This document shows positions 17,485 to 24,563 of a stretch of DNA of 24,723 nucleotides, piece after piece (the first letter of the stretch is position 1; every line of letters starts with the position of its first letter). This DNA comes from Candidatus Woesearchaeota archaeon (lineage in GTDB: Archaea; Nanobdellota; Nanobdellia; Pacearchaeales; GW2011-AR1). Position numbers and translations under genes: made by a program. The stretch lies in contig CAZOGX010000001.1 in the NCBI GenBank assembly GCA_964579805.1, positions 1-24,723 of the forward strand. The letters are read 5' to 3'. The notes beneath the pieces were generated by a model that saw only the letters and a program-made list of their open reading frames with translations, did no database searches and was not told the DNA's origin.

Positions 17485-18492
17485 ATGTCTAAATTAAATA
17501 ATTCTTTTCAGGAAATATGGGAGAAGATTAAACAGAGCAAGAATATAATTATGAGTTTGCATTCTGGTCCTGATGGGGATAGTCTTGGAAGTTGCATGGC
17601 TATGAAGTATGTTATTGAAAGAGATTTGGGAAAGAAAGTTAGGGTTTTGAGTGCAGATGAATTAGCTGGGGTTTTGAATAATCTTGAGATGGCTAAAGAT
17701 GTTGAGATAGGTATAGATGTTTTAGATGTAGACTTGAGGGAATTTGATTTGCTAATTGCTTTGGATACTGCAAATAAAGAAAGAATTGGAAAACACAAGG
17801 AAGAAGTAGATTTTCCAGAGAAGTTATTTGTTATAAACATAGACCATCATGAAAGCAACAATTATTATGGAAGTATGAATTATATAGATGGAAAGAAGTC
17901 TTCAAATTGTTCAATCTTGATTTCTTTATTTAAGGAAATGGGAATTAAGTTTGATAAAAAGTTATCTGAAAGATTGTTGCTTGGAATTTGTACTGATACT
18001 GGCTTTTTTAATTATGGAATGGACTTAAATTTAGTTTTTAGAGATGTAGCTTTCTTAGTTGATAATGGTGCTGACTATTTCAATGAAATTTTAGATCCTT
18101 TTATGAATCATCAGTCTTTGAAGATAAAGAAATTTTATGCTCATGTTATAGAAAATACTATAATTAATGATGAAAAAAGGTTTGGATATAGTGTTGTTTC
18201 TAAAAATGAAATTGAAGAGCTGGGAATTAACCAATCTGAAGCGAGGAGAGGAATAGAGCAGATACAAACTTTAGATGGATTGGATTTTGTTTTTATTTTA
18301 ATAGAACATGATGATCATATTAAAGGTTCTTTTAGGTCTACAAAGAGGGTTAATGTTTGCAGATTTGCGGAAGCTTTAGGGGGAGGAGGGCATAAACAAG
18401 CAGCCGCTTTTAGATTAAAAGATTTGAGTTTGAAAGAGGCAGAAGAAAAGGTCTTGAAGGTTATTGATGAGTTAGGAGTTAGTATATTTTGA
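17485..18492 (+). CDS. nrnA: DHH/DHHA1 phosphoesterase (NrnA-like nanoRNase/pAp phosphatase)
   Basis: HSGPDGDSLGS, LD, IDHH, GICTDTG.F, KGSFRS and GGGGHKQAA. Confidence 0.85.
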   Translation: MSKLNNSFQEIWEKIKQSKNIIMSLHSGPDGDSLGSCMAMKYVIERDLGKKVRVLSADELAGVLNNLEMAKDVEIGIDVLDVDLREFDLLIALDTANKERIGKHKEEVDFPEKLFVINIDHHESNNYYGSMNYIDGKKSSNCSILISLFKEMGIKFDKKLSERLLLGICTDTGFFNYGMDLNLVFRDVAFLVDNGADYFNEILDPFMNHQSLKIKKFYAHVIENTIINDEKRFGYSVVSKNEIEELGINQSEARRGIEQIQTLDGLDFVFILIEHDDHIKGSFRSTKRVNVCRFAEALGGGGHKQAAAFRLKDLSLKEAEEKVLKVIDELGVSIF

Positions 18493-18526: not shown

Positions 18527-19516
18527 ATGAATAATAGTAAAGATTTGGAAAATGAAAACATGGCTAGAGAGAACTTGCTTAGACGAGGGGTTGATTTAAA
18601 AGGTGTAAAGATTGAAGGATATGACTTTGACAAGGGCGTTGATTATTCTGGAATTGTTAAAAGTTTTAGTAATAGCGGATTTCAAGCTAGTAATTTTGGA
18701 AAAGCAGTCGACATAACTAGGAAGATGATTGGAGATGGGGCTTTTATATTTCTAGGGTATACAAGCAATATGGTAAGTTCTGGAAATAGAGAGATAATTA
18801 GCTGGTTAGTAAAGGAGAGAAAGGTTAATGTTTTAGTTACAACTTGTGGCGGAATAGAAGAGGATATTATAAAATGCTTGGGAGATTTTGTTTTAGGCGA
18901 TTTCAGAGCGTCTGGAAATGATTTGCGGGAAAAAGGTATTAATAGAATTGGAAATATATTTGTTTCAAATAATTTATATATCAAATTTGAGGCATTTGTT
19001 CAACCTATTCTTGAAGAGCTTTATAGAGAAAAAAAGACTGTTTCTGGGATGGATCTGATATGGAAATTAGGAGAAAAAATTAATGATGAAAGAAGCATTT
19101 GTTATTGGGCTTGGAAAAATAAAATAAGAATTTATTGCCCTGCAATTACAGATGGTGCTTTAGGAGATAATATTTATTTCTTTAAGTTCAGGAAAGAAGA
19201 TTTTGTGCTGGATATTGCAGAAGATATTAAAGAGTTTAATGATATGACCATCGGACTTAAAAAAAGTGGCGTGGTTATTTTAGGGAGTGGAGTGGTTAAG
19301 CACTCTATTTTGAATGCTAATATGCTTAGAAACGGAACAGATTATGCAGTTTATATCAATACTGCAGAAGAATATGATGGAAGCGATTCAGGAGCATTAC
19401 CTGAAGAGGCGGTAAGTTGGGGTAAAATAACTTCTGGTGCTGAAAGTGTTAAAGTTTTTGGAGACGCAACTATATTATTTCCTTTATTAGTTGCTGAAAG
19501 TTTTGCTAAAATTTAG
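18527..19516 (+). CDS. dys: Deoxyhypusine synthase
   Basis: GFQASNFG, GYTSNMVSSG, TTCGGIEED, GINRIGN, CPAITDG and DGSDSGA.PEEAVSWGKI (catalytic Lys). Confidence 0.95.
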   Translation: MNNSKDLENENMARENLLRRGVDLKGVKIEGYDFDKGVDYSGIVKSFSNSGFQASNFGKAVDITRKMIGDGAFIFLGYTSNMVSSGNREIISWLVKERKVNVLVTTCGGIEEDIIKCLGDFVLGDFRASGNDLREKGINRIGNIFVSNNLYIKFEAFVQPILEELYREKKTVSGMDLIWKLGEKINDERSICYWAWKNKIRIYCPAITDGALGDNIYFFKFRKEDFVLDIAEDIKEFNDMTIGLKKSGVVILGSGVVKHSILNANMLRNGTDYAVYINTAEEYDGSDSGALPEEAVSWGKITSGAESVKVFGDATILFPLLVAESFAKI

Positions 19517-20054
19517 GATGTCCCTCAAGATATTCTCTTATTCTTTTAAGGGCTTTGTGAAGTCTTGATTTTATTGTTCCAGTGGGTTCTTGAAGTGTTT
19601 CGGATGCTTGTCCAATAGTCAATCTTCTTTCATAAATAAGATATATTATTTCTCTTTGAGGTCTTGAAAGAGTTTTACATCACCTGTCTATATGAAGGTT
19701 CTCTACTTGTGCGGGATCTTTTTGTGCAAATTCTTCCAATAGGGGTCTTCCTTGTATTCTGTTATCTAATCCTGTTTTTCTTACCATATCTATAAATTGG
19801 TTTCTCATTATTTTCGCCAGGTATGTTTCAGGGGTTGAAAGATCAGGATTATATCTTTCAAAATACCTGTGCCTTAATCCCTTAAGAAAAGTTTCCTGCA
19901 CTAAATCTTCAGATCTTACGTAAGTTCCTAGAGTCAAACGCTTTGAAAAAGGATCGTAAAAACATTGTTTAATTAATAGACACGAATTATTTGCTATTTG
20001 GCTGTCTGTGCTTTGCACGTTCCAGACATCCTGCGGCGTTATTATAGCCACCAT
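19506..20054 (-). pseudogene. ECF-type sigma-70 family protein (sigma-2 + sigma-4, 182 codons) interrupted by one in-frame TGA at codon 125; pseudogene, recoded gene or sequence error
   Basis: Sigma-2: SEDLVQETFLK..PETYLAKIMRNQFIDMVRK. After TGA (19682-19680) the same frame continues CKTLSRPQREIIYLIYERRLTIGQASETLQEPTGTIKSRLHKALKRIREYLEGHPKF* (TAG 19508-19506), a typical ECF sigma-4 HTH. Confidence 0.85.
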
Positions 20055-20075
20055 TAATGACTAAAATACTTGAGG

Positions 20076-20083
20076 TTTTTAAA
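20076..20083 (-). promoter_or_regulatory. Archaeal TATA box of the sigma-like gene
   Basis: TTTAAAAA on the minus strand, 29 nt before ATG 20054, preceded by an A-rich BRE-like stretch. Confidence 0.65.
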
Positions 20084-20134
20084 GATTTATTTTTTTCACG
20101 CCTAATTTTATATGTGATAATATATAGTCAAATA

Positions 20135-20178
20135 TTTAAAGTATAGCCGATAGTAAACTGAATATAAATGAAAGGAGG
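20135..20178 (+). promoter_or_regulatory. ftsZ TATA box (TTTAAAGT, 20135) and Shine-Dalgarno-like GGAGG (20174-20178)
   Basis: The TATA-like octamer lies 61 nt before ATG 20196, implying a leadered mRNA. GGAGG falls in the predicted leader. Confidence 0.45.
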
Positions 20179-20195: not shown

Positions 20196-21278
20196 ATGGT
20201 ATTGGATTTTGCGAAAGAAGCTATACAGAATGCTAGCACACACAGCATTAATTTTGATGAATTAAGGGCTGGAAAGGCAAACATTAAAGTTTTTGGATGT
20301 GGTGGAGCTGGATGTAACACTATTACTTGGCTTTTTAATAAAGGTATTAATGGAGCTAGCGTTTATGGTGTTAATACAGACGCTTTACATCTTAGCATTA
20401 CTAAGGCTGACGAAAAAATCCTAATAGGTAAGGAGCTAACAAGAGGTCTTGGATGTGGCGGATATCCTGCTAAAGGAAGAGAAGCCGCAAAAGAATCTCT
20501 GTCTGAACTTAAGAAATCCACAAGCAATGCTGATATGGTTTTTGTTTGTGCAGGAATGGGTGGCGGAACTGGAACAGGTTGCGCTCCTGTTGTAGCACAA
20601 TTAGCTAAGGAAGCTGGTGCTGTTGTTATTGCAGTAGTAACCATGCCTTTTGAATGCGAGAAAGCTAGAATTGACAAGGCTGAATTTGGATTACAAGAGT
20701 TAAGGGAAGTTGTTGATACTGCGATAGTGATTGATAACAATAGACTTGTAGATATCGCTGGTAATCTTCCAATGGAACAGGCTTTCGCTGTAGCAAACGA
20801 GCTAGTAAGTACAATGATAAAAGGTATAGTGGAGACTATTACTTTGCCTTCATTGATTAACTTAGACTATGCTGACGTTTCAGCTATAATGAAAGGCGGT
20901 GACGTGGCAGTTATTGGAGTCGGAGAGTCTGACAGCTCTATGAGAGTTGATGAAGCAGTAAGACAAGCTTTAACGCACCCATTACTTGATGTTGATTACA
21001 GAGGAGCTACTGGAGCTTTGGTCCACATAACTTGTGGAGGAGACTTTAAGCTAGAGGAGTTCGCTGGAGTTGGACAACTAGTAACAGAAAATCTTAACCC
21101 TGAAGCCAATGTAATAATTGGGGCCAGAGTTAACAAAGATTTTGGAAGTAAAGTGCGAGTCATTACTATAATGACTGGCGTTAAGAGTCCTTATGTGTTA
21201 GGAAAAGAGATGGACAGAGGTAATACCCAAGCACATGCGAGGGAAATGTCCGATCTGGGTATAGAAGTCTTTAGATAA
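20196..21278 (+). CDS. ftsZ: Cell division protein FtsZ, archaeal FtsZ2-like
   Basis: GCGGAGCN, NTD, tubulin signature GMGGGTGTG and T7 loop TITLPSLINLDYAD. The ITxPSLINLDYAD form is recalled as typical of archaeal FtsZ2. Confidence 0.95.
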   Translation: MVLDFAKEAIQNASTHSINFDELRAGKANIKVFGCGGAGCNTITWLFNKGINGASVYGVNTDALHLSITKADEKILIGKELTRGLGCGGYPAKGREAAKESLSELKKSTSNADMVFVCAGMGGGTGTGCAPVVAQLAKEAGAVVIAVVTMPFECEKARIDKAEFGLQELREVVDTAIVIDNNRLVDIAGNLPMEQAFAVANELVSTMIKGIVETITLPSLINLDYADVSAIMKGGDVAVIGVGESDSSMRVDEAVRQALTHPLLDVDYRGATGALVHITCGGDFKLEEFAGVGQLVTENLNPEANVIIGARVNKDFGSKVRVITIMTGVKSPYVLGKEMDRGNTQAHAREMSDLGIEVFR

Positions 21279-22031: not shown

Positions 22032-22402
22032 ATGCCTAGTTTAGAGGAAATTAAAGAAAAGATAAGGGAATTTAATATTGAAAGAGACGGGGATAAATTT
22101 CATAATCCTAAAGATTTGTTAATTGCACTTACAAGTGAGGTTGGTGAACTTGCGGAATGTTACAGATGGTTGAATGAGGAAGAATTGCAGAGAGTTCATT
22201 CAGATCCGGAAAAGAAGAAAAAAATAGAGGCGGAAATTGCAGATATAATGTCCTATATTCTTATGATCTGTTATAAGACTAATATTGATTTGTTAGACGT
22301 TCTTGATAAAAAAATAAATCTAAATATCCTATTGATAAGTCTAAGGGAGTTCATAGCAATCCTTTAGAAGGCTTTAAGGGGAAAGGCGGGAGTTCAGTTT
22401 AA
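22032..22402 (+). pseudogene. MazG-like nucleotide pyrophosphohydrolase (dCTP pyrophosphatase-like), frameshifted near the C terminus
   Basis: FHNPKDLLIALTSEVGELAE and EIADI motifs. The annotated frame stops at 22367, while the family-like tail KSKYPIDKSKG..* lies in the -1 frame (22316-22402) after an A7 run. Confidence 0.75.
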
Positions 22403-23493
22403 TACCTGATTTCTCCTCCACCTAAAACTTCTGAATTTTTATAAATGACGCAGGATTGACCTTCTGCGAGACCAAGAATTGATTTTTTTAAATTTAAGAT
22501 GATTAAGTCATCTTTCCTTTCAATTTTTGCAGATATCAATGGACCAAGATGACGTATTCTTACTTTAACATTTGAGGGGAATCTTGGAACTTTGTTTATC
22601 CAATTAATTTTTATTACCTTAAATTGTTTTTTTAATAGAGAAGGGTGCTTTTCTGGGGCAACTTTGAGGACATTTGATTTCAGGTTTTTATCTGCAATGT
22701 AGAGTTTGCTTTTGACTTTGTTTCTATAATTGTTATTGATTAAAATGTTCTTACTCTCACCTATTCTTTCTCCTATAGTATAATAAAAAATTCCTTTATG
22801 AGTGCCAATAATATTGCCTTCAGGGTCTATGACTTTTCCTTCTTTCTGTTTTATTTTACTTTTTAGAAAAGATTTGAAATTTGTTTTTCCTATGAAACAT
22901 ATCCCCCTACTACCTTTTTTATCGTAATTATGGAGCTTGTTTGTCTTAGCAATAGCCCTTACTTCTGACTTAGTTAAGTTTTTCTCTCCTATTGGAAATA
23001 AAGTGTGTTCTAAGTCTTTTTGTGTTAAGTCATAAAGAAAATATGATTGGTCTTTGTTTTTATCTGCGGGAATGCGTAGAGACCATGAATTGTCTTTATT
23101 TTTTATTTTTTTTATGTAATGTCCTGTAGCAATGTAATCTATTCCTCTTTTCTTGGCTTCTTTCCATAGAAAAGGAAATTTTATTATTTTATTACATAAA
23201 GAATCTGGATTTGGAGTAAGTCCTTCTTTGTATGAGTTGAACATTTCACGTATTACCTTTTTTTTGTATTCTTTTTCAAAATCAAGAATAATTAGAGGAA
23301 TATTTAGCTTGGAAGCTATTTTTAGAGCATCTTTTTTATCTTCAAGATATGAACATTCTCCTGTAATTTCATTTTTTGTTTCGGAATAATTTTTCATAAA
23401 TGCTCCAATCACCTCAAATCCTTGTTTTTTTAATAAGATTGCAGAAACTGCGGAATCTACCCCTCCCGAAAGACCTAGAAGAACTTTTTTCAT
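22399..23493 (-). CDS. mnmA: tRNA U34 2-thiouridylase, bacterial MnmA type
   Basis: SGGVDS PP-loop, TPNPDSLCN, ATGHY, KDQSYFL, GICFIG, YTIGER, RIRH and GQS.V.Y..LGGG. Confidence 0.93.
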   Translation of the reverse strand: MKKVLLGLSGGVDSAVSAILLKKQGFEVIGAFMKNYSETKNEITGECSYLEDKKDALKIASKLNIPLIILDFEKEYKKKVIREMFNSYKEGLTPNPDSLCNKIIKFPFLWKEAKKRGIDYIATGHYIKKIKNKDNSWSLRIPADKNKDQSYFLYDLTQKDLEHTLFPIGEKNLTKSEVRAIAKTNKLHNYDKKGSRGICFIGKTNFKSFLKSKIKQKEGKVIDPEGNIIGTHKGIFYYTIGERIGESKNILINNNYRNKVKSKLYIADKNLKSNVLKVAPEKHPSLLKKQFKVIKINWINKVPRFPSNVKVRIRHLGPLISAKIERKDDLIILNLKKSILGLAEGQSCVIYKNSEVLGGGEIRY

Positions 23494-23522: not shown

Positions 23523-23723
23523 CCTATTTTTTTCAGATATTTAATGAAAACTGATGAAGATAAGGCTTCTTCCAAAGGAAAACGGAAAATTTAACTAGAA
23601 GTTTTATTTAAAACTCTTTTTCCTCGCCGAGAAGTTGAAGGACTAGGTTCTGAAGAAATAAAAGAGTTAATAATTGGAAGCTATAGAGAATCAATAAGAC
23701 CGAGTTACGATCCAAAATATTCC

Positions 23724-24563
23724 ATGTTTAAGCTTTTATCGACTAGAAGACTTAATACTATGGAGGCGTTCTTTTCAAATATAGATGTAACTGGACTCGA
23801 TAATCTTGCGGATGAATCGCGTCATGTTTTTATGCCAAACCATGTTAGCCATACTGATTATGTCCTTCTTTGGTATATTTTGAATAACCATTGGTTTAGT
23901 AATTCGGGTGAAAAAAAGAAAATAAAGCCTTTATCCATTGTTGCCGGTAAAAATTTGGATAATCCTCTTCTAAATCTTGTAGGTTTGGAACTTCATAGAC
24001 TTGGGGCTGTTTGGGTTGATAGAGATTTCTTGGCTGGAAAATATGGAAGAATTGAAGCTTCTTTGTATGGAGAGGCCTTTAACAGAGAGGTAAAACGTTT
24101 ACTAGAAAATCTTGAGATGAGCTTAATTGCTTTCCCTGAAGGAGGTAGAGCTAATGGAAAAGGAGTTATGAAGAGGACTAAGAATGGTATTTTTAACACT
24201 GTTGCTAAAACTGCAGATCCAGAGTTAAAGATCGCTCCGGTTGCACTGGATTATACTGGTACTGTTGAAGGTCCATTTATTCCTATTATTGAAAGTTCAC
24301 GTCCAAAGAAAAATATTCTTCAGAGAGCTTCTTATTATGGTGCGGATGCTCTTGCATTTTTATCTGCTTATACTTCTGGAAGAGTAAGACAAGTTCTTGG
24401 CCTTAGCCCTCCAGATAGAAAAGTTAGAGTTAGTTTTGGAGAGCCTTTTTATCTTTCAGAGTGTGTGGATGGAAGCGGAAGAATATCTCCTAAATTGTTG
24501 GCAGAAAGAGTGGCTGGTGAAGTTTCCTCACTTCATGAAAGAATACGCTTTAGACAGGATTAA
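23724..24563 (+). CDS. Glycerophospholipid acyltransferase (PlsB/PlsC, LPLAT superfamily); true start probably 23544 with an early in-frame TAA
   Basis: PNHVSHTDY (HxxxxD), VAGKNL, GAVWVDR, FPEGGR and IAPVALDY. The frame is open upstream to 23595. Confidence 0.8.
   Translation: MFKLLSTRRLNTMEAFFSNIDVTGLDNLADESRHVFMPNHVSHTDYVLLWYILNNHWFSNSGEKKKIKPLSIVAGKNLDNPLLNLVGLELHRLGAVWVDRDFLAGKYGRIEASLYGEAFNREVKRLLENLEMSLIAFPEGGRANGKGVMKRTKNGIFNTVAKTADPELKIAPVALDYTGTVEGPFIPIIESSRPKKNILQRASYYGADALAFLSAYTSGRVRQVLGLSPPDRKVRVSFGEPFYLSECVDGSGRISPKLLAERVAGEVSSLHERIRFRQD

Follow-up and report, generated by a model that had tools for sequence, protein, structure and literature searches.

Archaeal RNA polymerase initiates transcription with TBP and TFB, without a sigma factor. 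In the window analysed here, that is, the whole stretch of 24,723 nucleotides, a sigma-70-like gene lies between dys and ftsZ. This locus raises the questions of whether the gene is a member of the bacterial sigma-70 family, whether it is intact, whether it belongs to the archaeon and what its product may do. The features of the locus are as follows.

19506–20054, minus strand: ECF-type sigma-70-like gene of 182 sense codons, closed by TAG and broken at codon 125 by a TGA (translation, Pfam, TIGR02937, AlphaFold2).
19773–19937, minus strand: sigma-2 domain, residues 40–94, with a divergent first helix (PF04542, 39.8 bits, profile positions 16–68 of 71).
19680–19682, minus strand: in-frame TGA, codon 125, between sigma-2 and sigma-4; every other assembly read at this base has TTA (Leu).
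19533–19673, minus strand: sigma-4 domain, residues 128–174, untranslated from the window allele (PF04545, 40.1 bits; PF08281, 29.3 bits).
18527–19516, plus strand: dys, deoxyhypusine synthase, the convergent neighbour (PF01916, 378.7 bits; TIGR00321, 365 bits).
19506–19516, no strand assigned: convergent 3′-end overlap of 11 bp between the sigma gene and dys (from the ORF coordinates).
20196–21278, plus strand: ftsZ, the divergent neighbour, with a leader containing GGAGG (TIGR00065, 384 bits; 73–92% identical across the family).
20076–20083, minus strand: TATA box TTTAAAAA of a leaderless promoter, −29 to −22 from the sigma ATG (genome-wide −29 peak, 72/400 ORFs).
20123–20142, plus strand: core promoter block of ftsZ, TATAGTCAAATATTTAAAGT; all five genera with the sigma gene in this slot conserve it (intergenic comparison).

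The initial annotation had described a 182-codon frame with recognizable sigma-2 and sigma-4 motifs, and all of the motifs that it quoted were found on the minus strand at 19506–20054, with EDLVQETFLK at residues 49–58, TYLAKIMRNQFIDMVRK at residues 77–93, LSRPQREII at residues 129–137 and GTIKSRLHKALKRIR at residues 159–173. It had also proposed a check by HMM search. The results showed that the read-through translation scored above the cut-offs of Sigma70_r2 (39.8 bits versus 24), Sigma70_r4 (40.1 versus 24.1; in the window this domain is encoded downstream of the TGA) and Sigma70_r4_2 (29.3 versus 25.7) in Pfam, and above that of the sigma70-ECF superfamily model TIGR02937 (65.1 versus 42.9). 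The Sigma70_r2 match begins at profile position 16 of 71, indicating that the first helix of the domain is divergent. The 182-amino-acid protein has two domains, sigma-2 and sigma-4, and no sigma-3 or sigma-1.1. An AlphaFold2 model built on 68 aligned sequences (mean pLDDT 81.5) displayed two helical bundles with a low-confidence linker between them, and the best PDB matches by sequence and by fold were all ECF sigmas (Mycobacterium tuberculosis SigE, SigL and SigH, Bartonella RpoE, SigW, AlgU and Escherichia coli sigmaE).

Of the features that define the ECF (group 4) sigma-70 family, sigma-2, sigma-4 and the TIGR02937 match with small size were all found; an uninterrupted reading frame is absent in the window (TGA at codon 125) and present in 12 sibling contigs. 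Judged by its sequence, the gene is thus a bacterial-type member of this family. It resembles the bacterial ECF sigmas (M. tuberculosis SigE/SigL/SigH, Bacillus subtilis SigW, E. coli sigmaE; PDB 9m9d, 6dv9, 5zx3, 5wuq, 1or7) in its sigma-2/sigma-4 architecture, its length of about 180 amino acids, its lack of sigma-3 and the common motifs DLVQET, RN..ID..R and the GT(I/V)KSR recognition helix, but differs from them in its divergent first sigma-2 helix, its interrupted frame, the lack of an anti-sigma neighbour, an archaeal TATA promoter, and a host in which the only polymerase in view is of archaeal type. The two adjacent genes are dys and ftsZ and neither is an anti-sigma gene, as had been stated from the outset. 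A co-encoded anti-sigma factor is usual for ECF sigmas, but not universal.

The gene had further been taken to be full size. This did not hold, for the in-frame TGA at codon 125 leaves a table-11 ORF of only 124 amino acids (19680–20054, minus strand). The base at 19681 is C only in the window; it is A in 12 of 12 Logan contigs of sibling strains and also in runs X8, X13 and X20, giving TTA (Leu). Between the window and its nearest contig, L071, there are 2 differences in 6083 bases, one of them at base 19681. The occurrence of C in a single source, together with this near-identity, implies that the change arose very recently or that the consensus is wrong here. In this genome TGA serves as a regular stop, terminating 84 of 338 long ORFs, and the window copy is a null or truncated allele in which a single TTA>TGA change gives a 124-amino-acid, sigma-2-only product.

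Could the TGA be an error of the consensus or assembly, such that the organism truly has an intact TTA allele and a full-size gene? C occurs in the window alone, the twelve contigs and the three runs all having A; L071, the closest contig, departs from it at just 2 of 6083 bases; and no more than 92% of the sampled words of the stretch are present in any listed run, so the source sample may be missing from the runs. Against this, an assembled consensus seldom carries single-base errors, an independent second lesion is present in the other sigma-like gene of the same genome, and a real nonsense polymorphism exists elsewhere in the population (TAA at 23592 in several strains, GAA in one). We consider such an error quite unlikely. 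The possibility that the TGA is read through or recoded as Trp, Gly or Sec to give a full-length protein from the window allele is far more remote. The 57 codons past the TGA continue the frame and match the sibling alleles in full, but the mutation is too recent for this conservation to be informative; in addition, TGA ends 84 of the 338 long ORFs, all other genes of the window are open under table 11, and the sibling codon specifies Leu rather than Trp, Gly or Cys. With TGA a normal stop in this genome, recoding (table 4 or 25) was rejected.

The second sigma-like gene of this genome is located on contig C38. DNA alignment to sibling contigs showed that it is frameshifted by a 50-bp deletion. 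The segment in this assembly (G000 contig C38:2–584, L004) belongs to a longer sigma-70-like gene, which carries the 50-bp deletion and is also cut off by the contig end; a tblastn search of contig C38 with the long sigmas of relatives gave no match. In sibling strains the gene is intact and encodes 389 amino acids (L139:540–1709), with a Sigma70_r2 match of 38 bits and a sub-threshold r4 match. Both sigma-like genes are therefore disrupted in this assembly and both are intact in sibling strains.

On the same contig as the sigma gene lie genes for GatD and GatE of archaeal type and for a ProRS of archaeal/eukaryal type. The genome, which is 79% complete at 490 kb in 57 contigs, contains an archaeal 16S rRNA and TFB, and G+C content is even across the locus and matches the flanks. 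Pfam searches of this 79%-complete genome for TBP and for the N-terminal domain of the polymerase largest subunit gave no match, most likely because of the incomplete assembly. Three relatives carrying the gene in the same slot (88–95% complete) have exactly one match each to the polymerase largest subunit; in G229, the relative examined in detail, the largest-subunit gene adjoins an Rpo2-like gene, with no bacterial polymerase in view. The order dys/sigma/ftsZ was recovered in 12 independently assembled Logan contigs from at least nine runs, covering bioreactor, sludge, soil and aquatic metagenomes. The recurrence of the archaeal junctions in 12 independent assemblies bears out the argument of the initial annotation against a contaminating bacterial fragment, and the gene is resident in the archaeal chromosome, not mis-binned.

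It is hardly credible that the gene stems from bacterial contamination or a chimeric contig, or that its product is an effector which enters a bacterial host and acts on its polymerase. The nearest non-self relatives of the gene do lie in bacterial gene contexts, for example beside TonB-dependent receptors and UvrC. However, identical junctions with archaeal genes in 12 independent assemblies, a G+C content matching the flanks, a promoter that is the host's own and a best non-self match of 37% identity among 1.84 billion representatives all speak against a foreign fragment, and this organism has no known bacterial host and nothing points to an effector role. Contamination or chimera was rejected on the 12 concordant assemblies.

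The arrangement of the gene was also as first described. Its 3′ end at 19506 overlaps dys (18527–19516, plus strand) by 11 bp, and ftsZ (20196–21278, plus strand) is divergent from it at a distance of 141 bp. The TATA box said to be common to this gene and host genes was confirmed, since TTTAAAAA begins 29 nt before the ATG and −29 is the genome peak: among 400 crude ORFs genome-wide, TTTA[AT]A starts exactly at −29 of the ATG in 72, compared with about two per position elsewhere. The 11-mer CTTTAAAAACC is found at −29 before both the sigma gene and dys. This canonical spacing indicates that the sigma gene has the standard leaderless promoter of the lineage. Between 17% and 45% of the sampled words of the gene were present in four metatranscriptomic runs from two studies, for which carried-over DNA is possible; this suggests that the sigma gene is transcribed.

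The ftsZ gene is unlike the leaderless pattern: a BRE/TATA block, conserved, lies some 60 nt upstream of it, and its leader, roughly 30 nt long, contains GGAGG. The block lies at a constant distance from the ftsZ ATG and at a variable distance from the sigma ATG. A candidate role of this conserved sigma–ftsZ block as a binding site of the sigma protein was rejected in favour of the ftsZ BRE/TATA, the spacing being fixed to ftsZ and not to the sigma gene.

A search of 1.84 billion representative proteins gave only four matches at E ≤ 1e-10; the best non-self match was 37% identical (E = 1.3e-11) and the nearest were in bacterial gene contexts. A protein search with the intact allele in 40 relatives found nothing, and orthologs surfaced only via synteny with dys and ftsZ. 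Intact genes for sigma-2/sigma-4 proteins of 183–202 amino acids occupy the same dys/ftsZ slot in G450, G281, G229 and G464, which represent four other genera of the same family. These genes are convergent with dys and divergent from ftsZ and have Sigma70_r2 and r4 matches; gene order is alike in all of them, and only the window copy bears a stop. The slot proteins are 25–31% identical to the window protein, compared with 86–92% for the adjacent FtsZ and 64–77% for Dys. Eight residues are invariant across the slot genes (M1, D9, Q53, R84, D89, R92, T160 and K162), and the last six of these fall within the DLVQET, RN..ID..R and GT(I/V)KSR motifs.

A maximum-likelihood tree was built from the 5 slot genes, 8 other ECF-like genes of the family and phylum and the 63 nearest metagenomic matches. 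In the free tree, 38 of 73 inner branches were open. Placement of the five slot genes in one clade was not rejected (AU p = 0.63), and the constrained tree was 10 lnL units better. At 24 of 29 other ftsZ loci of the family there is no sigma gene, and in G515 dys and ftsZ are 119 nt apart with an 'empty' junction. These loci imply that the slot is optional and that the link with ftsZ is limited to a small group of genera. On the proposed check of synteny with dys and ftsZ, only five genera have the gene in the same slot, and the 24 other loci of the family lack it.

Comparison of sibling contigs revealed 13 variable sites in the 549 bases of the sigma gene and 2 in the 1083 bases of ftsZ. The L011 allele of the sigma gene differs from the window at 11 of 549 bases, 10 of them nonsynonymous and 1 synonymous, whereas three neighbouring genes together differ at 6 of 2637 bases (Fisher p = 1.6e-5). 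The nonsynonymous/synonymous ratio fits neutrality (binomial p = 0.29), and strong purifying selection (omega of 0.1) was rejected (p = 2e-5). The variation at this hot spot could reflect relaxed selection as well as diversifying selection.

These data bear on the possibility that the gene is a functionless relic of a bacterium-to-archaeon transfer undergoing neutral decay, with the stop codon as one step of its loss. The nonsense allele in the window, the breakage of the second sigma-like gene, the neutrality-compatible L011 ratio (10 nonsynonymous changes to 1 synonymous, p = 0.29, with omega = 0.1 rejected at p = 2e-5), the absence of the gene at 24 of 29 other ftsZ loci of the family, the empty dys–ftsZ junction in G515, and the fact that further accessory genes are variable or broken in these strains are all in line with decay. 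However, frames of 183–202 codons are open in four other genera at 25–31% identity, where an unconstrained frame would have broken; the invariant residues are located in recognized sigma-2 and sigma-4 motifs; the promoter spacing is exactly canonical; and the gene is intact in 12 of 12 sibling contigs. We therefore regard a relic as unlikely.

The initial annotation could not tell how widespread such genes are in DPANN. Of 400 other genomes sampled from the phylum, 166 have a Sigma70_r2 match, as do 49 of 120 further genera in the family; the matches fall into two classes, long proteins (about 280–390 amino acids) and ECF-like ones. The answer had in part been published: sigma-70 genes were described in DPANN, especially in Woesearchaeota, as protein family fam00359, and in that work mis-binning was excluded, anti-sigma factors were not found and the mechanism was left open (Castelle et al., 2021, Front Microbiol, PMC8204110). 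A literature search turned up no later functional study of DPANN sigma genes. The window gene is like those of fam00359 in being a bacterial-type sigma in a DPANN chromosome without an anti-sigma; it differs from them as an ECF-type orphan (best non-self match 37%) in a dys/ftsZ slot with a nonsense allele. Its assignment to DPANN is based on the small size of the genome and on the published description. The rpoS-like genes reported on DPANN viruses and prophages (Nat Commun 2025, PMC12647753) are likewise sigma-family genes linked to DPANN, but the window gene has no nearby viral genes and is flanked by the core genes dys and ftsZ. The kind of gene, DPANN sigma-70-like, is thus already known, and the locus adds no new phenomenon.

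What the product may do was addressed with a model of the G229 ortholog in complex with residues 1–330 of its own Rpo1N, G229 being used since the largest subunit was not found in G000. The G229 complex reached an ipSAE of 0.41, versus 0.02 for the best control, a result that the tool grades as 'weak support' and that belongs to a range (scores ≤0.60) in which wrong predictions outnumber right ones unless the pairing had been likely in advance. In calibration, 55 of 80 solved complexes and 3 of 110 mismatched pairs attained the mark. The modelled interface joins the clamp coiled-coil (Rpo1N residues 227–251) with sigma residues 47–57 and 86–94, and its contacts are not those of the QET helix. 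The docking model may simply recall solved sigma/beta-prime complexes and is to be taken as a lead, not as evidence.

The reading that we prefer, and consider probable, is that the slot encodes a fast-evolving and probably domesticated sigma-derived regulator, with a null allele in the window and loss of the second sigma-like gene. The slot gene is a chromosomal ECF (group 4) member of the sigma-70 family under an archaeal promoter, one among the DPANN sigma-70-like genes, and occupies an optional dys–ftsZ slot common to at least five genera of one family. It evolves very fast while keeping the sigma-2/sigma-4 architecture and hallmark residues. Its product would most likely act as a domesticated transcription regulator, reading DNA through the sigma-4 helix-turn-helix and sigma-2, and may dock on the clamp coiled-coil of archaeal RNA polymerase; the regulator role is plausible. 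The slot sigma is dispensable at the strain level, and in the window assembly it is lost through the TTA>TGA null allele, along with the second sigma-like gene, knocked out by the 50-bp deletion.

A bolder proposal is that the slot sigma, and by extension the DPANN sigma-like proteins, are working initiation or clamp-binding factors of archaeal RNA polymerase. Here the docking site of sigma-2 would be the clamp coiled-coil of Rpo1N, to which TFE and Spt4/5 bind, and a DNA motif would be recognized by sigma-4. We regard this proposal as doubtful. If it is true, promoter selection in the TBP/TFB system would gain a layer of bacterial style, and the joint loss of the two sigma-like genes from a single strain would place both in one pathway. 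The matter is of wider concern: sigma factors are regarded as unnecessary for archaeal transcription, but sigma-2 domains are kept by about 40% of the genomes sampled from the phylum. For any account of these proteins, the locus provides as constraints the host's leaderless promoter, a single slot across genera at 25–31% identity, the retention of residues of true sigmas, and the possibility of strain-level loss, here along with the other sigma-like gene. Since intact siblings exist beside a doubly broken strain, they offer natural knock-out/intact pairs for comparative metatranscriptomics.

Further observations were made on other genes of the window. Bacterial-type genes lie beside core archaeal ones, encoding an NrnA-like DHH phosphoesterase (17485–18492), MnmA, a tRNA 2-thiouridylase (22399–23493), and a glycerolipid-type acyltransferase (23724–24563). 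Heavy import of bacterial genes has been described for DPANN, and these three genes fit this pattern. Within dys, at 19024–19048, the ERR31694xx contigs and run X8 have about 10 substitutions and a compensating 1-nt insertion/deletion in 25 nt, a cluster more suggestive of one short segment that was inverted or replaced than of separate mutations. A second hot spot of variation is a MazG-like gene (22032–22367, plus strand), with 11 variable sites in 336 nt, including a start-codon change and an indel; the products called in sibling contigs are 83, 98, 111 or 126 amino acids long. In the acyltransferase region (23544–24563, plus strand), an upstream in-frame extension is halted by TAA at 23592–23594. 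Contig L074 has GAA at 23592, and a 339-amino-acid acyltransferase is called there. The TAA is common to several strains, implying that it is a real nonsense polymorphism.
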